A stretch of 54,088 nt of DNA from a virus (Duplodnaviria > Caudoviricetes), in IMG/VR virus record IMGVR_UViG_3300023199_000101, positions 1-54,088 of that record; one strand, given 5' to 3'. A program made the translations under genes and the position numbers. This document shows, piece after piece, positions 115-49,045 of this stretch. Below the pieces are notes generated by a model that was not told the origin of the DNA, made no database searches, and saw only the letters and a list, made by a program, of their open reading frames with translations. Position 1 is the first letter of the stretch, and every line of letters begins with the position of its first letter.

Positions 115-355
115 CGTGCAAAGCATGGTCGTATAGATGCCCTCGTTAACTGAACGCGGAACATTTCCGCCCTCGTCTGGGTTGTAAGTGTGCAACCGTC
201 TGGACGCGGGTTCGACTCCCGCCGCCTCCACTAAGCTAGCAATGATTCGGGGGCGAATGGATATCGACAGGCGGCCAAGTACCTGAACTGACGCATAGCA
301 CTACCCCCGGCTGAGTAGGTCGGGGCAAAGCCCTGGGGCAATCCTCCGGGGCTTT
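115..355 (+). ncRNA. Circularly permuted tmRNA-like RNA (tRNA-like domain with 3' half before 5' half); outer ends approximate
   Basis: T-arm GCGGG-TTCGACT-CCCGC (206-222) and acceptor 3' strand CGCCTCC-A (223-230) are followed 18 nt later by GGGGGCGAATGGATATCGAC (from 249). These pair 7/7 with a G3-U70 wobble. CAGGCGG (268-274) pairs with CCGTCTG (196-202). Confidence 0.7.
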
Positions 356-357: not shown

Positions 358-397
358 GGTATCTGAAAAAGACCTATCTTTGCTTCAGGAGGAAAAG

Positions 398-661
398 ATG
401 ATCGGATATTTTATTTCTATTATGGCCATCGCTGCCTTGGTGTTTCGAAACTTCCAGCTGGCTGCTGAGCTACAAAAAGAACGGCGCGACCATCGAAATG
501 CGATAGACAGCCTAAATGATATTCTGAGGCAGAAAGCTGAGCATCGCCCGGAGCGGAAGCCGAAAAAGGAAACGGAGGATCCGGATAGCCCTTCGAGAGT
601 TCTATTGAGCCGGCGCGGAAAGCGCATTCGAGAAGGAGTTATCGACTGGGGCGAAGCCTAA
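398..661 (+). CDS. Hypothetical protein, N-terminal membrane anchor plus coiled coil
   Basis: Hydrophobic N-terminus; TATCTTTG -7-like promoter at 375-382. Confidence 0.6.
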   Translation: MIGYFISIMAIAALVFRNFQLAAELQKERRDHRNAIDSLNDILRQKAEHRPERKPKKETEDPDSPSRVLLSRRGKRIREGVIDWGEA

Positions 662-890
662 GTTTTTCTATACTATTTCTATACTCAGGACCATGAATAA
701 TGTAAACTCCTGAAAGAAAGCAAGTTAAAACTTGGTCTCGTAGTACAATGGATAGTACGTGCCAAATATTCATTCTGCCGCATTCCTTCCCAAAACCCCT
801 GTTGTACCGACTTGTCAGATATTCGTTTTCAGAATCAGGGCGAATAGGCGAGAATAAGTACCACTCAGTTTTCTATACTATTTCTATATT
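661..890. other. attP: tRNA 5'-end fragment core (734-758) flanked by arm-type direct repeats
   Basis: GGTCTCGTAGTACAATGGATAGTAC is an acceptor 5' strand plus D-arm (GTAC/GTAC stem), tRNA-Arg-like. TTTCTATACTATTTCTATA occurs at ~665-683 and ~870-888, directly upstream of the integrase. Confidence 0.7.
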
Positions 891-910: not shown

Positions 911-2128
911 ATGAAGCTGAATTTTGTCTGCGGCCGCCAGACCTTTCGCAACGATCGGGGGGAAGGTCAGATCGAATTATACCTGTACCATGCCCGGAAA
1001 AAGCGGTACCTAGCTACCGGTTACTTCTGCAAGCCTGCTGACTTCCAGAGAGGAAAAGTTACGCGCCGCCCAGATGCCGTCAAAATCAACAACCGACTGA
1101 ATCGCCTTCGAAGGGAAGCTGAGGACTATTACGACCGCGCCCAGGTCGCAGGGAATCCCTTCCACATGGATAGCCTGCTGGATCACCTGCGGGAATACCT
1201 TCGAGGATCCGCAGACCGTCCGCCGGAGCAAGAAACATTCTGTTTGTTCGTGCGGGCTAATATTGAACTGATGCGCCGGAAGGGGTACGCCCGGGGGTAT
1301 CTGAAAAACCACCAAACATTGCTGAGCCGCTACCTGGAAAAGTACGATCCCGTGGCCGGGCTGGACGATTTGTCGTACCTGTGGCTTTCCGACCTAGTGG
1401 ACTGGCTATTTCAGCAGCCAAACCAGAAGTACCCGGATGGGAAGCTGTCTGCAAACTATGTCGGGCAGCAGGTAACGCTGCTAAAGGTTCACGTTTCTGA
1501 GGCTGTCCGACAGGGAAAGATCCCATACAACCCGTTCAGCGAGTTCTCCGTCCAGCGGGAAAAGACGCGCCCGTCCTTCCTGACAATCGAGGAAGTGGAT
1601 GCCGTTGCCGCCCTAGACCTGACCGGCCGGGGCCCGAAGTGGGAATTTTGGCGTAAGTGGTTTGTCGTCTTGGCGGATACTGGTCTGCGGTATATCGATA
1701 GCGTGCGCTTGGAGCGACGACATATTAGCGAAACTTCAGACGGTGCTTTCCTTCGCATGAGCCCTCAAAAGACTGGCCGACGGACCTTGGCCGATATTGC
1801 ACTGCCGCTCCGGGATCTATTTAATGGCCGACCGGAACGAATCCTGGTGGAGCTTTGCGATGGTCTGGACCCTGCGGATCGTGTTTTTCCTGGAACAGCG
1901 GATGGCGACCTGAATAGATACTTTCGGGAGATAGGCCGGGCGGCTGGTATTGACAGTCATTTCACGGTTCACTCGCTGAGGCACTCGTTCGGAGTAAATA
2001 TGCTGAATGAAGGATACCCTATTGAGGTCGTTTCGCGTTTGATGGCTCATTCTGATATAAAGACGACGCAGATGTACGCCCACCTGACAGACCAAGGCGT
2101 TGTTCGGATGCTGAGGCGGCGAAGTTGA
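911..2128 (+). CDS. int: Tyrosine integrase (arm-binding, SAM-like and catalytic domains)
   Basis: TGLR, HSLRH, MAHS..TTQMY catalytic motifs; Bacteroidota-type N-terminal arm-binding domain. Confidence 0.95.
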   Translation: MKLNFVCGRQTFRNDRGEGQIELYLYHARKKRYLATGYFCKPADFQRGKVTRRPDAVKINNRLNRLRREAEDYYDRAQVAGNPFHMDSLLDHLREYLRGSADRPPEQETFCLFVRANIELMRRKGYARGYLKNHQTLLSRYLEKYDPVAGLDDLSYLWLSDLVDWLFQQPNQKYPDGKLSANYVGQQVTLLKVHVSEAVRQGKIPYNPFSEFSVQREKTRPSFLTIEEVDAVAALDLTGRGPKWEFWRKWFVVLADTGLRYIDSVRLERRHISETSDGAFLRMSPQKTGRRTLADIALPLRDLFNGRPERILVELCDGLDPADRVFPGTADGDLNRYFREIGRAAGIDSHFTVHSLRHSFGVNMLNEGYPIEVVSRLMAHSDIKTTQMYAHLTDQGVVRMLRRRS

Positions 2129-6849: not shown

Positions 6850-7553
6850 GCAAGACAATGAAAATATGGGAGGCATTAACTCCCGTAGATCCTCAGTACA
6901 CTAAGAAAGTCCCGCTTGGCGGTCGTAGGTTGACAGCTATCAACGCGACCTACCGGTTCCAGCGAGCTACCGAATACTTTGGCCCTATGGGGCTGGGTTG
7001 GGGCGTAGAGGACGAGCAGTACGACTTTCAGCAGCTGGGAGCCGAAAAGCACGATACCCTATGCACCTACCGTGCCGTGCTGTGGTACATTGATCCTGAG
7101 AGTTCCGAGACTGGAAAAATCCAGATTAGTGCAGATATCTGGGTCTGGGAATACTCGCGCAAGTATCAGGAATGGCAGCGCCAAGAAGACCTTTTTAAGA
7201 AGGTTCAGACTGACGCGCTGACCAAAGGCCTGTCGAAAATAGGCATGGCCAGCGAGGTGTTTAAAGGAATGTGGGATGACCACAAGTATATGGCGAAAAT
7301 CCAGGCTCAATTCTCTGGCCAGAACGGGAATGAGTCAGCTAGACGCAAGCTGACCAAGAAGCTGCTGGAGCAGGCCGAGCCTGGAATGCAAATCGGTGTG
7401 AAAGAGCAAGGCATGACCTTGAAGCATGTGCTGGAAGCATTCGCCAACAAAGGCTTTACCCTGGATCCCGACATGGAAAAGCATGTTTCTGATAAGGTTC
7501 GCCGTTGGGCGAAAGAAGCTGAGGAAAAAAGGGGCGAAAAAGTCCGGCCGTAG
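6846..7553 (+). CDS. Rad52/Sak-like single-strand annealing protein
   Basis: YTKKV..GGR.LTAINATY, FGPMGLGWG, KKVQTDALTKGLSKIG.ASEVFKG motifs. Confidence 0.75.
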   Translation: MSKTMKIWEALTPVDPQYTKKVPLGGRRLTAINATYRFQRATEYFGPMGLGWGVEDEQYDFQQLGAEKHDTLCTYRAVLWYIDPESSETGKIQISADIWVWEYSRKYQEWQRQEDLFKKVQTDALTKGLSKIGMASEVFKGMWDDHKYMAKIQAQFSGQNGNESARRKLTKKLLEQAEPGMQIGVKEQGMTLKHVLEAFANKGFTLDPDMEKHVSDKVRRWAKEAEEKRGEKVRP

Positions 7554-7701: not shown

Positions 7702-8400
7702 ATGACAAGTGTAGATTTCATTGCAAAACATCTCCCCCTCGAAAATTTAGGGATTCCTATTTTGCCTGTTAATGATGTTTGTTCATTTACTGGCAAAACA
7801 ATCAAAGAGGGAGTTTACAACAAAAAACTTATCAAAAAAACATTTACCGACCATGCTTACTTGAGATACCCTTCCGATTATTCAAGTGTTGAAGCTGCGC
7901 TATGTATAGAAGCTGTAATCCCAGCAAAAAAGGGTTTAAGTTCGCTTAGAAATTACTCATACTTTGTATCTGAAAGGAATTTGAAACTATTGAAGCGTGA
8001 GGAAATATTAGACTTGATGCTGAATATTAATGAAAGCCCGTTTGTGCTTGCTGTAACTTATTCAAATAAGAAACACACGTCTTACAAAACAACGCTTAAC
8101 TATAATATCGAAAAATTTGTCGTTACAACTGATGTTGGCGATGTGTTAATTGAGCGAAAAGGGTTACTTGAGATACTACCAATTTTGCAAAACTGGTATA
8201 CTGTTGTTGATGGCAAGCAATGTACAGCATCACAACCCACTTATTTCACAAAATCAGAAATATTGAGCGGGAGCGAAAATATTAAGCGTATCCGGCAATA
8301 CGGAATTGAAAAATATTGCCTTGAAAATGCGGAAATTGAAAAATACCGAAATACGGCATTTCTTAATCTTATTGTTCACATTCTTAACAAAAAAGTCTAA
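7702..8400 (+). CDS. csf1: Type IV CRISPR large subunit Csf1 (Cas8-like)
   Basis: Degenerate N-terminal Zn-finger with TFTD, PFVLAVTYSNKKH and FTKSEILSG motifs; first gene of the csf operon. Confidence 0.75.
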   Translation: MTSVDFIAKHLPLENLGIPILPVNDVCSFTGKTIKEGVYNKKLIKKTFTDHAYLRYPSDYSSVEAALCIEAVIPAKKGLSSLRNYSYFVSERNLKLLKREEILDLMLNINESPFVLAVTYSNKKHTSYKTTLNYNIEKFVVTTDVGDVLIERKGLLEILPILQNWYTVVDGKQCTASQPTYFTKSEILSGSENIKRIRQYGIEKYCLENAEIEKYRNTAFLNLIVHILNKKV

Positions 8401-18336: not shown

Positions 18337-18690
18337 GAATGAAAAAACCCTGGCAAAGGCCAGGGTCGTCCCGAAACACCTATGTTGAAATCCAAATCTC
18401 CGAAAGATGCTGCCGTTCGCGCACAGGCGTTCTGGCCTGCCGTCGGGCCACTCACACCTGGCAGCCACCCAGGGCAATTCGGCGACTTGGTGTGCCCCGG
18501 AAGCCCTGATCCGGAAACAAAAGAACCCATATTCTTAGCCTTGGATCCTGTCATCGCAGGACAAATCTAGTGTATATTCTTTAATATTCAAAATATTCTG
18601 CAATGAAATTTTTTTCGTGAAAACGTTAAATAATTTGCATGCTCTGAATATCCGCCTTTTTCCCCGAGGTCCGTTAATCCGGGAGCGGGG

Positions 18691-18845
18691 GGGGGTAAAC
18701 ATAGGATTAAGGGGGTATAAATGTACGATTAAGGGGGTATAAATGTACGATTAAGGGGGTATAAATGTACGATTAACCATAATAATACAAGAGTAATAAT
18801 ACAAGATAGAATAAGCGGACCTGTTTCAAAACAGGCCCGATCCTG
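18691..18845. repeat. Non-coding copy of Rep-gene iterons: 3 x 22-bp GATTAAGGGGGTATAAATGTAC plus AATAATACAAGA repeats
   Basis: Perfect tandem units at 18705, 18727 and 18749; the region aligns to 48394-48515 inside the rep gene. Confidence 0.9.
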
Positions 18846-31294: not shown

Positions 31295-31779
31295 CCAGAA
31301 AAAAAACTTGACATTTTCTGAAAAATAATTGTGCAAAACTTGACAATGTGTAAAGATTGGCTTATATTTGTATCATCAGTTAATCAAAAAAAAACACAAT
31401 GAAAAATTGGAATGAATTTCTAGCGGCTTGTAAGATTGCGTGGCAAACAGAAGGGCGCCAAGAACCGGAAATAGGTAGATATTTGCGGAGGTGCGAAAAA
31501 ACCACATCGATTGGGGTTAATCCAGGTAGCCGCTAGTGCGTACAAATTGTACAAACAAGAAAACGCATGCACAAAGAACAGCTAAAAAAGGAAATCGAAG
31601 CCCGCTTCCAATCGAGGCGGGCTTTTGTTTTTTCGTTCAACGAGAAAGCAGGATTTGCGGCACTGGACGAAACAACCCTGAGCCGCCAAGTTTCGGGGCG
31701 TGTCGGATTGTCAGCCGCTTGGCAGTGTGCTTATCTGTTTTTCTTTTCATCTTATAGCACCTAACGGCTCTGTATGTGA
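31295..31779 (+). mobile_element. Duplicated AT-rich mini-element: promoter + 45-aa ORF (31399-31536) + HTH ORF
   Basis: Left part matches 53969-54088 and right part matches 1-114; TATATTTG -7 box at 31363; ends ACCTAACGGCTCTGTATGTGA. Confidence 0.75.
31567..31764 (+). CDS. Small Cro/XRE-like HTH protein
   Basis: SRRAFV....LDETTLSRQVSGRVGLS pattern. Confidence 0.6.
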   Translation: MHKEQLKKEIEARFQSRRAFVFSFNEKAGFAALDETTLSRQVSGRVGLSAAWQCAYLFFFSSYST

Positions 31780-39766: not shown

Positions 39767-42700
39767 ATGAAAGCGTTGTGGAGGATTGCAGTTTTTCTTT
39801 TGATCGCCGACTGCCTTTTTGGGCAAACCGGCCCGGCAACCCGACCCTTGGTGCGCAGACTGGAGCAAGCGCCCAAAGAGGGATCGATTATCGTATCTGA
39901 TTCAAACCGAGACGGGCAATGGGATTCGACGCTGATCTGGACCGGCGTGTACCTGATCGCTAACGGTGATACCCTGGGTATAGGATCCGGTGGGGGCGTT
40001 CCGCAAAGCCTGACATTCACCAGTCCGACTCTTTCTATTTCGGGCGGCAATAGCGTGGATCTTTCTGCATTGCTCGATAATACCGATGACCAAGTGCTAA
40101 GCCTAACGGGCGACGTGCTGAGCCTGGAGGACGGCGGCTCCGTAAACCTTTCTTCCTACTTAGATAATACCGATACGCAAGACCTTAGTTTAGCCGGGAA
40201 TACACTTTCCCTTACAGACGGAGGGAGTGTAGACTTGTCGGCATTCTTGGATAACACAGATTCGCAAACGCTGAGCCTGGCCGGTACGGTGCTTTCTATT
40301 TCGGGCGGCAATAATGTGGATTTTGCTTCCTTGGTAGCTCCTCAAAATCTGACATTCGATATATCTACTGGCAATCTTTCGATATCAGGAGGTAATACTG
40401 TAACTATTCCCGAAATGGTTGGTGCTAGTTCGGTAGCTGCAGGCGAGCAGGGCCTAGTTCCTGTTCCACTGGCCGGGGACGAGGAAAAGTTTTTGCGCGG
40501 CGATGGTTCATGGTCAGACGTAGCTGGCAATCAGACTATAAGCATAACCGGAACGGATTTATCGATCAGTCAGGGCAACTCGGTGGCCTTAGCCGAGGTG
40601 CTGGCTCTGAATGACCTATCGAACGTAAATGCCAGTCCGGCAAACGGGCAGGTTTTGAGCTGGAATGGAAGCCAGTGGGTAGCTGCTGACGATGCTACCG
40701 GTGCGCCCGGAACCTCTGATGGGGTGGTCGATGGGGTAAGCATTAGCAATGATTCCTTGGTGCTAACTAGGACGGAAAGCCTGGGGGATTTGCGGGTTGA
40801 CTTGGACCCGTTCCTGGACAATACCGACGAACAGACACTGAGCCTGGCTGGTACTGATCTTTCTGTTTCGGGAGGGAATACCGTAGACCTGTCCGGCCTG
40901 CAGGATGGCACCGGTACAGACGACCAGCAGCTGACATTAACCGGGAATACTCTTTCCCTGGAGGACGGCGGCCCCGATATTGATTTAAGCGGCTATATCG
41001 ATAATACCGACAACCAAGGTTTTGACATTGCGAGCCTAAATGGTACGGACTTGGAATTGAGCCTCGACAACGACGCGGCTACAACGATCATTGACCTTTC
41101 CAGCTTGCAGGATGGCACCGGTACGGACGATCAACAGCTTTCGCTGGCTGGAAACAGTTTGTCGCTGGAAGACGGCGGGAGCGTTAGTTTGGCTTCGTAC
41201 CTGGACAATACGGACGAGCAGACGCTGAGCTTCACCAGCCCAAATCTATCTGTTTCAGGTGGCAACACGGTAGATCTATCTGCCTTGCAGGACGGCACCG
41301 GCACGGACGATCAAGCGCTGAGCTTGGCAGGTACGACGGTATCCTTGGAGGATGGCGGAAGTGTGGATCTGACCGAGGTGTTGGCTCTGAATGACCTATC
41401 GAACGTTAATTCCAGCCCTACGAATGGACAGGTGCTTTCGTGGAACGGTTCAGCCTGGGTAGCGGCTGACGATGCTACCGGTGCGCCTGGAACGTCGGAT
41501 GGGGTGGTCGATGGGGTAAGCATTAGCAATGATTCCTTGGTGCTAACTAGGACGGAAAGCCTGGGGGATTTGCGGGTTGACTTGGACCCGTTCCTGGACA
41601 ATACCGACGAACAGCAGCTTTCCTTGACTGGCAACAGCTTAACTCTGGAGGACGGAGGGAGCGCTATTGACCTGTCCGGCTACCTGGATAATACCGATGC
41701 GCAGACGCTGAGCCTGGTAAGTACGAATCTGACTATATCGAATGGCAACACGGTGGACCTGTCTGCCTTGCAGGATGGAATCGGTACGGATGACCAGACG
41801 CTGAGTTTCACATCACCGAACCTGTCGATATCAGGGGGTAACTCGGTTAACCTGTCTGCCTTGCTGGATAATACAGACGACCAGACTATTGATGTTTTTT
41901 TGCTGTCTGGTGACGACTTGCAACTTTCCCTGGAGGGCGATGGAGAAGCTACGAAAACGGTGGACCTGAGCGGCTACCTGGATAATACCGATACCCAGGA
42001 TCTTTCGCTGGCCGGCAACACACTGAGCCTGACCGATGGCGGAAGTGTGGACCTGTCGCTGTACCTGGATGACACCGACGACCAGACGCTGAGTTTCACT
42101 AGCCCGAACCTGTCTATTTCGGGGGGTAATAGCGTGAATCTGTCCGCCCTGAACACGGAGCGCACCGATGAGGAAATCGAGGATGTGGCCGGCGCCATGT
42201 TTTCGGGCAATGCGGAAACGCTCATAACGGCAACATACCAAGATGTTGACGGAACTATTGACCTAGAGGTGAACGACGACCTGAGCTTGTACGATAACTC
42301 AACTTCGGGATTCGTAGATGGCACAGAACTTGCCGACACGGCAGCCGCTATTCGAGCAGACTTTCCTACAACCGCAGACGGCGTTGCGTCTTCCGGGTCG
42401 CTTGATACATTGAGTGAGGAAATTGACATTGTGGTCACCGATGCCCCAGATTTTTCGATTGACCTTTCGAAAATTGACGTTTTGCCTTCGTTTTTAAGCT
42501 GGGATAAGGATGTTGCAAATGAGGGTAGACTTTCCACAGCTAATCTTTTCGGCGATGGTGCGATTACCAGCAACACTCAGGGAGCACTCGCAATCAAATT
42601 TCCTGCCGGCTTCGGGCTGAACACTATGGTTACGAGCGCGTCAAATGGCGGCGAAATTGAGTTTGAGGTCGATACTTCAGAGGTAGCTACGCTGAGTGCT

Positions 42701-44215
42701 TTGACAGATAGTCTTTCTAATATTGGCTCCACCACTGTCAGCGAGGGCGACCTGATCGACATCGTGAACGTGGGCGATGATTATCAGGTGGATGTGGATT
42801 TGAGTGAGTTGACAAATTCCGCGGCAGATATAATAGACGATGATGAGTTCATTTTTCTCGACAACGGCAATCAGCAGAAGATGCGATCGGATTCGTTCGC
42901 ATGGAACTATCTCACGGAGGTGATAAGTACATCAGAATCGGGAAGCTTTTTTAAAGAATTCAATAATTCTGTTTTTGCAACTAATATTGTGTCCTTGACT
43001 GGGAGCGCTACAACTCACGACGCATTAGTTTCAATGGGTCGAGGCCAACATGCTATCGGCATTCGCTTCATCATCACAAATGACGGGAGCGCCGACAAGA
43101 CGGTAGATTTCGGTACGCTATACCATTGGGCAGGCACGACCAACGACGTGGAACTCGAAGTAGATGTCGGCGATACGGAGGTAATTGAGTGCTACCGGCT
43201 GACACCTACTGGAAGTGTATTCGAGTGCGTCTACCTGAACGACACGATACCCACAGGCGGAGGTGGCTCCGACGATTGGGGTACGCAAGTCGTTCAATCG
43301 GATGCAACCCTGATAGGCGATGGCACGAGCGGCAATGAGTTGAAGGTCGATACTTCAGAGGTAGCTACGCTGAGTGCGCTAAATGACAGCATTGCGGGCT
43401 TATCAACTACGGATACCCATCTTTTCAGCGAGAACAAGACCCTTTCGGCTAATCGCTCGCATTCCCTTGGCGCCAATCGTCTAGGCTTCACGCTTGCGAA
43501 CGGCGAGTTCGATGTTACAATGCAGACAGGAGCCTCCTCAATCGCTCTTGGCGGTGAGGGAGTATCGGAAACAAGGATTGGCTCCACATCTATCTGGGGT
43601 GACAGCATTATGATTTCGGCCAATGAGCTTCACTTGCAGGGTTTCGACTCTATCGTGGTTTCGGAGAGTAAAATGAAGTATGATGCGTCTGCTCCAACTA
43701 GTTTCTCAGGCACCGATATTCCGAGCGTAGACTGGATAGAAGCGAATATACCAGGTACGGATGCAGTGGGAATCAACGAGTTAGACATTAGTCTTACTGA
43801 CCTTGATCTCGAACAAGATGAATTTTTCTTACTTCGCGATGGCAGTAATCTTGAAGAAGTGAGCTTCGACAATCTTGTAGACAAGGAAATACAGGCGCTC
43901 CCCTTCACGACCACGACTTCTGGGAACTTCAGCATTATTATCACCGAGTCTGTTTTTGGGGTAGTGAGGGTCAATCTTACCGGCGGGGCGACCACCCATA
44001 CGGTCACTATGTCTACCAGTTTTGTGCGGACAGGCGCGCAGTGGACAATACATATTAGAAACACGGGAACTGGAACGCACACGGTAGATTTCCCCAGCAC
44101 TGTGCTGAAGGGTGATGCTACTACACAAGTCGGTAATATCGGCATTGACGCTGGTGATTTCATATTTATTCCGATGTATTATGACGGAACGAACTTCATC
44201 ACTAATCTGAACTAA
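39767..44215 (+). CDS. Long repetitive tail fibre / adhesin
   Basis: Many DNTDxQxLSLxGxxLSxxGGxSVDLS repeats; two related C-terminal beta domains. Confidence 0.8.
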   Translation: MKALWRIAVFLLIADCLFGQTGPATRPLVRRLEQAPKEGSIIVSDSNRDGQWDSTLIWTGVYLIANGDTLGIGSGGGVPQSLTFTSPTLSISGGNSVDLSALLDNTDDQVLSLTGDVLSLEDGGSVNLSSYLDNTDTQDLSLAGNTLSLTDGGSVDLSAFLDNTDSQTLSLAGTVLSISGGNNVDFASLVAPQNLTFDISTGNLSISGGNTVTIPEMVGASSVAAGEQGLVPVPLAGDEEKFLRGDGSWSDVAGNQTISITGTDLSISQGNSVALAEVLALNDLSNVNASPANGQVLSWNGSQWVAADDATGAPGTSDGVVDGVSISNDSLVLTRTESLGDLRVDLDPFLDNTDEQTLSLAGTDLSVSGGNTVDLSGLQDGTGTDDQQLTLTGNTLSLEDGGPDIDLSGYIDNTDNQGFDIASLNGTDLELSLDNDAATTIIDLSSLQDGTGTDDQQLSLAGNSLSLEDGGSVSLASYLDNTDEQTLSFTSPNLSVSGGNTVDLSALQDGTGTDDQALSLAGTTVSLEDGGSVDLTEVLALNDLSNVNSSPTNGQVLSWNGSAWVAADDATGAPGTSDGVVDGVSISNDSLVLTRTESLGDLRVDLDPFLDNTDEQQLSLTGNSLTLEDGGSAIDLSGYLDNTDAQTLSLVSTNLTISNGNTVDLSALQDGIGTDDQTLSFTSPNLSISGGNSVNLSALLDNTDDQTIDVFLLSGDDLQLSLEGDGEATKTVDLSGYLDNTDTQDLSLAGNTLSLTDGGSVDLSLYLDDTDDQTLSFTSPNLSISGGNSVNLSALNTERTDEEIEDVAGAMFSGNAETLITATYQDVDGTIDLEVNDDLSLYDNSTSGFVDGTELADTAAAIRADFPTTADGVASSGSLDTLSEEIDIVVTDAPDFSIDLSKIDVLPSFLSWDKDVANEGRLSTANLFGDGAITSNTQGALAIKFPAGFGLNTMVTSASNGGEIEFEVDTSEVATLSALTDSLSNIGSTTVSEGDLIDIVNVGDDYQVDVDLSELTNSAADIIDDDEFIFLDNGNQQKMRSDSFAWNYLTEVISTSESGSFFKEFNNSVFATNIVSLTGSATTHDALVSMGRGQHAIGIRFIITNDGSADKTVDFGTLYHWAGTTNDVELEVDVGDTEVIECYRLTPTGSVFECVYLNDTIPTGGGGSDDWGTQVVQSDATLIGDGTSGNELKVDTSEVATLSALNDSIAGLSTTDTHLFSENKTLSANRSHSLGANRLGFTLANGEFDVTMQTGASSIALGGEGVSETRIGSTSIWGDSIMISANELHLQGFDSIVVSESKMKYDASAPTSFSGTDIPSVDWIEANIPGTDAVGINELDISLTDLDLEQDEFFLLRDGSNLEEVSFDNLVDKEIQALPFTTTTSGNFSIIITESVFGVVRVNLTGGATTHTVTMSTSFVRTGAQWTIHIRNTGTGTHTVDFPSTVLKGDATTQVGNIGIDAGDFIFIPMYYDGTNFITNLN

Positions 44216-48064: not shown

Positions 48065-49045
48065 ATGCACAAGCCTTCATACTACACGGTCACCCCTGCT
48101 CACATCAGGTATGACAAATCCCTTCCTCCTTTTGCACGTCTACTGTATGGTGAAATTACTGCGCTTGCGAACAAGCGAGGCTATTGTGATGCTAGCAACG
48201 GATGGCTGGCTAAGCAGTACGAAGTTACGCCTCAGGCAGTCAGTGGTTGGATTCGGCAGTTGGCTGAAAAGGGGCACTTGGTCTTAATCTATGAGGATGG
48301 CGAGTACGGGATGAAGTGCAGGAAAATATACCTTTCTGAAGCCTATCGGCAGGAGTTCGAACTATTAACAGACGTTTACCCCCCTAAACAACAGATTAAG
48401 GGGGGTATAAATAACGGATTAAGGGGGTATAAATGTACGATTAACCAGAATAATACAAGAGAGAATAATACAAGAGAGAATAAAGCGGACCTGTTTGAAA
48501 ACAGGCCCGACCCTGGACCGAAGCCAGTAAAAAAGAAGGTCGCTGACATGAGCGACAATGAGAAAATGAGCTACCGGCTGGAGAAAGCGAAAGCGAAATC
48601 CTACGAGCCTGACATTCGACGGGTAGTGGATTATTTCCGGAAAGCCTCAGGTAAGAATGTAGCCTACTCGACGAAGGACGCGCTGGACTACATGGTCAAG
48701 CGCATGAAAAAGGACGGCTACACTGCCGACGACTTGACTCTGGTGATTGACTACAAGGTTAAGCAGCTTGTGGATCGGCCTGAATACATCAACCTATCCA
48801 CCTTTTTCCGCGATAGCCTATTTGAGGGCAATCTGGAAAAGGCCCGAATGAATAACAGGAAAGCCGGACCATCGAAAGCATCTCCGGTACGAGACCCTAT
48901 TGAGGATGAACAAGTAAGGGCGTACAAGTCCATGATGGAGCGTGCCCGGCTGAAAGGATACGACCTGCAGGAAGCCGCCGCCTTTGCGCGAAAGCACCTC
49001 GGGCTGAATGATGATTTTTTCAACCAACAAACAACAAACGCATGA
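48065..49045 (+). CDS. Phage replication initiator (N-terminal wHTH, internal iterons)
   Basis: YY.V.PA.IRYD..L...A.LLYGEITAL....GYC.ASN..LA motif; GY..DDL..VID.K C-terminal domain. Confidence 0.88.
   Translation: MHKPSYYTVTPAHIRYDKSLPPFARLLYGEITALANKRGYCDASNGWLAKQYEVTPQAVSGWIRQLAEKGHLVLIYEDGEYGMKCRKIYLSEAYRQEFELLTDVYPPKQQIKGGINNGLRGYKCTINQNNTRENNTRENKADLFENRPDPGPKPVKKKVADMSDNEKMSYRLEKAKAKSYEPDIRRVVDYFRKASGKNVAYSTKDALDYMVKRMKKDGYTADDLTLVIDYKVKQLVDRPEYINLSTFFRDSLFEGNLEKARMNNRKAGPSKASPVRDPIEDEQVRAYKSMMERARLKGYDLQEAAAFARKHLGLNDDFFNQQTTNA
48374..48515. other. Probable origin of replication (iterons within the rep gene)
   Basis: GATTAAGGGGGTATAAAT units at 48394 (one extra G) and 48417, inverted GTTTACCCCC upstream, then AATAATACAAGAGAG x2; lambda O-like layout. 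Confidence 0.7.

Follow-up and report, generated by a model that had tools for sequence, protein, structure and literature searches.

Permuted and Reduced tmRNAs

Two-piece tmRNAs have already been published for phages, including the OM43 phage Melnitz and the pelagimyophages, and in the available portion of that report 53 of 133 unique phage tmRNAs were classified by ARAGORN as two-piece (PMC9004378). The Melnitz-type genes are described in the same portion as full-size and provided with normal tags, and they belong mostly to lytic aquatic myophages (PMC9004378). Strong reduction has also been recorded. According to the accessible part of the corresponding article, the tmRNA of mycobacteriophage DS6A is 'little more than the TLD', and the idea of a decoy that titrates SmpB was raised there (PMC4131195). 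The tmRNA database, as far as the accessible text of its description goes, holds 79 phage sequences, 72 'permuted, no CDS' entries and 2-residue tags; the same text covers mitochondrial permuted tmRNAs without a tag frame and Fermentibacterota tmRNAs with 2-residue Ala-Ala tags (PMC11915505).

The window analysed here, IMG/VR record IMGVR_UViG_3300023199_000101 over its whole length of 54,088 bp, carries a tmRNA-like element that resembles the Melnitz-type phage tmRNAs in its permuted order and in matching the same Rfam model. It differs from them in aligning with model positions 26-117 only, in being about half their size, in lacking an encoded CCA, and in residing in a temperate phage beside a probable attP and an integrase gene. 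Like the DS6A RNA, it is a phage RNA reduced nearly to the tRNA-like domain, to which the SmpB-titration idea can be attached (PMC4131195 and PMC11915505, in their accessible parts); DS6A, however, infects an actinobacterium and its tmRNA follows the standard order without permutation, whereas the present element is permuted and has a possible 2-codon frame. With the mitochondrial permuted tmRNAs lacking a tag frame it shares a permuted, tiny structure that is mostly tRNA-like domain, although those RNAs belong to an organellar lineage, and with the Fermentibacterota tmRNAs it shares an extremely short tag frame, although those are bacterial and not phage genes (both as presented in the available text of PMC11915505). 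Judged on titles and abstract openings, none of the papers retrieved dealt with a Bacteroidota-phage or miniature permuted tmRNA; a paper on AcrIIIA1 that deals with tmRNA fragments has no bearing on the element. Phage two-piece tmRNAs and the decoy idea are already known, and what is new is a rare small variant.

The Phage Genome and Its Host

The record is classed as linear, with a completeness estimate of 84%. Both contig ends fall within a repeat of about 485 nt whose interior copy occupies 31295-31779: positions 1-114 recur at 31666-31779 with 100% identity, and 53969-54088 matches 31295-31412. Since the repeat at both ends has a further copy in the interior, the molecule is probably a circle whose assembly broke within the repeat, with about 253 nt missing. 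The repeat is promoter-bearing, with twin AACTTGACA boxes, a TATATTTG -7 box and two small ORFs, and one regulated promoter seems to drive two different operons through the copies at 1-114/53969-54088 and 31295-31779. On the plus strand, positions 1-99 of the left-hand copy (1-114) encode the last 32 codons and the TAA of a 65-aa ORF. Since 1-114 is repeat, unique sequence starts at 115, in agreement with the start of the element in a preliminary description of this DNA; within the span of 115-355 proposed in that description, 115-195 and 299-355 are still to be regarded as putative parts of the RNA.

A Bacteroidota host is likely, though not proven, because the nearest terminase relatives (39-45% identity) are phages of Croceibacter, Chryseobacterium and Cellulophaga and the sewage phage vB_RanS_PJN03, because the primase has a BT4734-like N-terminal domain, and because TAnnTTTG boxes lie upstream of genes in the window. 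The terminase and primase domains thereby support the earlier assignment to a Bacteroidota phage. No SmpB gene was found in the 54-kb window. The closest phage relatives found through the integrase and terminase were only 23-47% identical and had unrelated loci, and a blastn search of positions 1-1000 against 50,697 phage records returned no match.

Several other features of the genome deserve mention. A type IV-B-like CRISPR-Cas effector module occupies 7702-11197 and comprises Csf1/Cas8 (7702-8400), a Cas11-Csf2/Cas7 fusion (8400-9638), a PAPS-reductase/CysH-like gene (9808-10560) and Csf3/Cas5 (10553-11197). Tandem 22-nt repeats (GGGGGTATAAATGTACGATTAA) are present at 18689-18793 and 48401-48461, in each case followed by AATAATACAAGA repeats, and look like iterons or operators. 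In addition, a 1482-aa ORF (39767-44215) contains many periodic repeats of 87-96 nt with the peptide motif DLSxYLDNTDxQ and probably encodes a fibre or adhesin.

A Permuted tRNA-like Domain

The window specifies a complete tRNA-like domain of the tmRNA type, arranged as a 3' half, an 18-nt spacer and a 5' half, all on the plus strand. Along 196-274, the gene order is that of the permuted form, with the T-arm and 3' acceptor strand first, then the spacer, then the 5' acceptor strand and D-loop analogue, and with helix 2a closing the structure. The 3' half consists of the 3' strand of helix 2a (CCGTCTG, 196-202), a T-arm with a 5-bp stem and a 7-nt loop (GCGGG/TTCGACT/CCCGC, 206-222), and the acceptor 3' strand CGCCTCC with discriminator A230 (223-230). 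The intervening spacer, CTAAGCTAGCAATGATTC (231-248), would be removed on maturation; it begins with CTA at the position of the CCA, which is not encoded. The 5' half comprises the acceptor 5' strand GGGGGCG (249-255), the D-loop analogue AATGGATATCGA (256-267), placed by the Rfam models, and the 5' strand of helix 2a (CAGGCGG, 268-274); both helix 2a strands were read directly and also recovered by the Rfam models. The acceptor stem has seven pairs, including G251.T227, which corresponds to G3:U70, and together with discriminator A230 this pair supplies the alanine identity elements. Helix 2a likewise has seven pairs (268-274 with 196-202), one of them G.U, and all 19 of the 19 pairs of the tRNA-like domain are standard or G.U. 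Each element listed in the preliminary description was found at its given position by reading the sequence directly.

That description had also interpreted the locus as a circularly permuted tmRNA domain and had suggested an Rfam search as a check, and the models bear it out. Rfam RF04321 (tmRNA_permuted) matches 196-279 with 57.3 bits against a curated cut-off of 47 (E 1.4e-8 for the whole window) and is the sole Rfam family above its cut-off in the 54 kb, with an alignment that spans only model positions 26-117 of 213 rather than the full length. On that stretch the beta_tmRNA model reaches 52.1 bits, short of its cut-off of 84; none of the clade models (alpha, beta, cyano) reaches its cut-off on the window, the mt-tmRNA model has no match in it, and ARAGORN at default settings makes no call in it. 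A one-piece reading over 29-231/233 was rejected, as its acceptor pairing is poor and its supposed 5' end falls in the terminal part of an ORF (1-99) and in the repeat (1-114); RF00023 scored 38.6 bits on 29-233, below the cut-off of 47, and ARAGORN reported 'tmRNAp, ALVN*' only with lowered thresholds (-ps).

Relation to Bacteroidota tmRNAs

Bacteroidota tmRNAs had been described beforehand as normally one-piece, and the sampled genomes agree: ARAGORN found standard one-piece tmRNAs at 14 of 15 Bacteroidota loci, the fifteenth being cut by a contig end, and RF04321 exceeded its cut-off in 0 of 151 sampled Bacteroidota genomes. Two sub-threshold RF04321 matches in such genomes proved to be 5' parts of ordinary tmRNAs. 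The tags predicted by ARAGORN for Bacteroidota include GENNYALAA and ADDYSYAMAA. None of the 15 Bacteroidota tmRNA genes encodes the CCA, which is replaced by a trailer beginning with CT or CA; at loci from mixed phyla, CCA is encoded in 104 of 120 and missing from 16. Since the phage gene has CTA in place of CCA, and the 15 Bacteroidota genes likewise encode no CCA, CCA on the phage RNA would need to be added post-transcriptionally.

Over 199-233 the sequence agrees at every position (100% identity) with the 3' end of the tmRNA from one Bacteroidota genome, and matches to this stretch occur in 174 of 401 sampled genomes. In comparison with the closest host (G346), both strands of helix 2a have changed while complementarity has been kept, and this helix 2a variant joined to the T-arm occurs in none of the species-representative genomes. 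The 5' 20-mer is found in no tmRNA of these representatives and has 0 matches in IMG/VR; its sole genome match, on a Mesorhizobium contig, lies in an apparently protein-coding stretch and is not a tmRNA. A GTAAGTGTGCAA box within 178-195 aligns with the TAAGCRTGTAGA helix-2 box of Bacteroidota tmRNAs. On the basis of this box alignment and of the missing CCA with a CT trailer, the phage gene looks to be derived from a Bacteroidota-type tmRNA.

Permuted tmRNAs in Other Phages

The base rate of the permuted layout was estimated from fetched loci sharing the 25-nt 3' end of the element, in which a tmRNA-like 5' end was sought within 70 nt downstream. Such a 5' end was present at 0 of 120 bacterial loci and at 11 of 118 viral loci. 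Eight of the 11 were called permuted by ARAGORN, with lengths of 310-365 nt and normal tags; of the three that it missed, two are cut by contig ends. Because of this difference between viral and bacterial loci, the eight ARAGORN calls and the published examples (PMC9004378, available in part), phage two-piece tmRNAs are a real class.

A degenerate pattern combining the permuted layout with this T-arm retrieved 36 IMG/VR contigs, all of which encode CCA with the exception of contig L164, and RF04321 aligns over its full length, at 89-111 bits, with the four permuted IMG/VR genes that were tested. Apart from the present element, CCA-less permuted genes with this T-arm number one in IMG/VR, one in a metagenome set and none in genomes. 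L164 (2712-2914) and L298 (3884-4075, minus strand) are full-size permuted tmRNAs of marine phages situated inside tRNA arrays, without an encoded CCA and with Bacteroidota-like tags (GVENYAMAA and ...EENFALVA); L164 is missed by ARAGORN, and RF04321 scores both at 89 bits. The element described here is similar to these two in being permuted, in its T-arm and in the absence of CCA; they differ from it in being full-length, with pseudoknot-sized bodies and 9-residue tags, and the phages are unrelated (no tblastx match). A further phage contig, L178, carries a permuted tmRNA, a tRNA array and, at 7310-7367, a match to the Type-P5 twister ribozyme that scores 42 bits (cut-off 37.6).

Flanking Structure and Reduced Size

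Beyond the tRNA-like domain, a helix 2b is predicted in which GTACCT (279-284, plus strand) pairs with 187-193. In a constrained fold, the region 178-195 would supply the distal 3' strands of helix 2 on the same strand, and 178-185 is able to pair with 287-295 as a helix-2 extension. Further downstream are two plus-strand hairpins, one of 8 bp with the loop GAGTA (305-325) and one of 12 bp that is rich in G+C and is followed by TCTGG (327-355). The second is a probable 3' end or terminator of the unit on the strength of its predicted fold, and a simple terminator scan did not call it. No pseudoknots are evident in the element, and helix 2a is separated from the candidate resume codon by just 15 nt. 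The mature pieces are tentatively estimated at roughly 50 nt and 110 nt, or about 160 nt in total. Against the 310-365 nt of other phage two-piece genes, the term 'miniaturised' that had been applied to the element is appropriate.

Fold z-scores are unremarkable (-0.91 for 115-362 and -1.12 for 249-362), and no additional pairing emerged between 100-195 and 275-360, where the duplex energy of -41.4 compares with a shuffle mean of -47.5 and 267 of 300 shuffles were as good or better. Vestiges of a tandem duplication were sought and rejected, as the similarity of 100-195 to 275-360 (208/500) and of 21-70 to 241-290 (49/500) was no better than that of shuffles. The element directly follows the ORF with the stop codon at 97-99, and no promoter box of its own lies between 100 and 250. 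Downstream, a Bacteroidota-type -7 box, TATCTTTG (375-382, plus strand), precedes an 87-aa ORF (398-661, plus strand) situated between the tmRNA-like gene and the attP; its product has an N-terminal hydrophobic helix and a charged tail, and no family was found for it in Pfam, PHROGs or PADLOC. The open frame running from 299 into this ORF is attributable to chance (33 stop-free codons, p ~0.2).

Candidate Tag Frames

The preliminary description had reported that no ...ALAA tag frame is visible, and indeed no frame ending in ...AA was found. Both frames that it offered instead exist at slightly different positions: DA* lies at 290-298 and not at 289-297, and ERGTFPPSSGL* at 152-187 and not at 157-189. 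The best tag candidate, from sequence context, is the mini reading frame at 286-298 on the plus strand, in which AACU would be followed by GAC GCA UAG (290-298). It has an A at -4 before GAC, like the ...TAACT-then-G contexts of the fetched host and phage tmRNAs, and this A fits a frame-setting rule worked out in E. coli (PMC2481249, in its available part). The encoded Asp-Ala is not degron-like. The frame at 152-187 has a more canonical context, TTAACT, and may be the real one, with 11 codons on the acceptor piece and a break point unlike that of the known permuted lineages. We know of no permuted tmRNA with a tag upstream of the T-arm, and this frame is disfavoured because in all known permuted tmRNAs the tag is on the other side of the 5' half.

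Run X3 of the same study provides the sole known relative, a 675-nt Logan contig that is identical over 203-276 and diverges to about 40% identity on either side; the comparison extends over 30 nt past 276 and includes no upstream half. The relative keeps AACUGACGCA despite its divergent flanks, with an in-frame stop two codons on. More precisely, AACTGACGCA is identical and is then followed by GCG TAA, so that the relative would read Asp-Ala-Ala-stop where the window reads Asp-Ala-stop. The conserved 10-mer stands out because identity in the flanks is just about 40%. Its conservation may nevertheless be structural rather than coding, since in the modelled helix-2 extension the same 10-mer can pair with 178-185.

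Integrase and Probable Attachment Site

The sole integrase in the window is a tyrosine recombinase (911-2128, plus strand) with Arm-DNA-bind_5 and SAM_5 domains, and no serine recombinase was found there. The region 664-888 (plus strand) is a probable attP, as suggested by its sequence: perfect 20-nt repeats at 664-683 and 869-888, which contain four of the five TTTCTATA boxes of the window, flank a tRNA-Arg(CCG) fragment. This fragment (734-757) equals the first 24 nt of a Bacteroidota tRNA-Arg(CCG), exactly so in three of four fetched genomes, the fourth being different. The attP thus carries the 5' end and not the 3' end of the tRNA gene, a less usual polarity for an attP, and integration would rebuild tRNA-Arg(CCG) with a 5' end and upstream region supplied by the phage.

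The tmRNA-like element is located about 500 nt upstream of the attP-like site and about 650 nt from the integrase gene, with the 87-aa ORF in between. An Islander-type att scar at ssrA was considered for it and rejected: both gene ends are present, and the arm-type boxes flank the tRNA-Arg fragment instead. The preliminary description had argued against an att remnant on the ground that this would carry only one end, and its case is strengthened by the location of the attP signals elsewhere and by the absence of the 5' half from every representative genome.

Proposed Function and Alternative Explanations

The reading that we favour, while still holding it tentatively, is that of a working, phage-borne, circularly permuted (two-piece) mini-tmRNA with a 2-codon frame. 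Its transcription would start from the upstream Bacteroidota-type promoter module, yield a single precursor and end at the hairpin 327-355. RNase P would cleave 5' of G249, and the 3' side would be trimmed to A230 before CCA is added by the host enzyme, as for CCA-less host tmRNAs. The two pieces would be held together by the acceptor stem, helix 2a and helix 2b, and the RNA would be charged by AlaRS through G3:U70 and A73 and bound by SmpB. On a stalled ribosome, translation would resume at GAC (290) and stop at UAG (296-298), adding only Ala-Asp-Ala, with the net outcome that ribosomes are freed without the host ...YA[LM]AA degron. A fuller version of this proposal, which we consider possible and yet doubtful, is that a one-piece gene of the host type gave rise, in a temperate Bacteroidota phage, to a natural minimal two-piece tmRNA of about 160 nt, free of pseudoknots, which still performs trans-translation but adds only Ala-Asp-Ala (Ala-Asp-Ala-Ala in the relative).

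The absence of pseudoknots and of a normal tag beside a complete tRNA-like domain would also suit a decoy consisting of that domain alone, processed and perhaps charged, without a usable frame, which would bind SmpB (and EF-Tu/AlaRS) and hinder host trans-translation. The candidate resume region can be buried in the helix-2 extension, the window is devoid of an SmpB gene, and the DS6A phage offers a precedent, a similar TLD-like molecule being described as a strong inhibitor of tmRNA (PMC4131195 and PMC11915505, in the parts available). Such a decoy would, however, leave unaccounted for the retention of AACUGACGCA and an immediate in-frame stop in a relative with divergent flanks, as well as the A at -4 that is consistent with frame-setting rules, and we regard it as somewhat unlikely. 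Both the mini-tmRNA and the SmpB decoy are more likely than the remaining explanations, in which the element is a relic, a processing signal or an artefact of assembly. Non-functional debris of recombination at a host ssrA, with a 3' att identity block and a 5' end left adjacent to it near the integrase, is in our estimation improbable. Such an origin is suggested by the identity of 199-233 to a host tmRNA 3' end, its matches in many sampled genomes, the integrase gene about 650 nt away and the other 5' tDNA fragment of this phage, from tRNA-Arg (734-757). The order of the two halves, with the 5' end following the 3' end after 18 nt, is however not one that ordinary integration and excision produce. 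Both helix 2a strands differ from those of the sampled hosts and are still complementary, none of the tmRNAs of representative genomes contains the 5' 20-mer, the arm-type TTTCTATA boxes (four of five) flank the tRNA-Arg fragment and not the element, and the relative preserves 74 nt unchanged.

The position of the element directly behind an ORF, with no promoter box of its own, would also accommodate a role as RNA-processing punctuation, in which the fold would serve only to attract RNase P and the enzymes that process tRNA 3' ends, so that an operon transcript is cut between the small ORFs and the RNA that follows. For that purpose an ordinary tRNA-like hairpin would be enough, and neither the D-loop analogue nor helix 2a nor G3:U70 would be needed, which makes this explanation very improbable. 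Least probable is an assembly chimera joined at the 30-nt tmRNA 3' end that is common to many genomes of the sample. The Logan contigs of runs X1, X2 and X3 do all break at 202/203, where the summed depth is 275-750x, and those of X1 and X2 leave 115-168 uncovered, a gap from which nothing is concluded. Nevertheless, in each of three runs the 3' half, spacer and 5' half follow one another on a single contig, with 202-2500 covered in two of the runs and 203-276 in the third; the pairing partners of 196-202 and 187-193 lie within 268-284, and 1-114 is phage sequence.

Significance

For annotation, the element illustrates that ARAGORN at default settings overlooks such genes, which the new Rfam model detects. 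If functional, it would be among the smallest tmRNAs still carrying a reading frame, and it would mean that gene permutation arose independently in a phage belonging to a phylum in which the cellular tmRNAs sampled are one-piece. With no pseudoknots and a 2-codon template, it would constitute a natural test of how minimal a tmRNA can be for ribosome rescue. It also gives a concrete setting in which to ask what phages gain by interfering with trans-translation, be it rescue free of proteolysis or a block of the host system. If the proposal of a minimal two-piece tmRNA is true, such an RNA could let the phage uncouple ribosome rescue from the degron tagging of its host.
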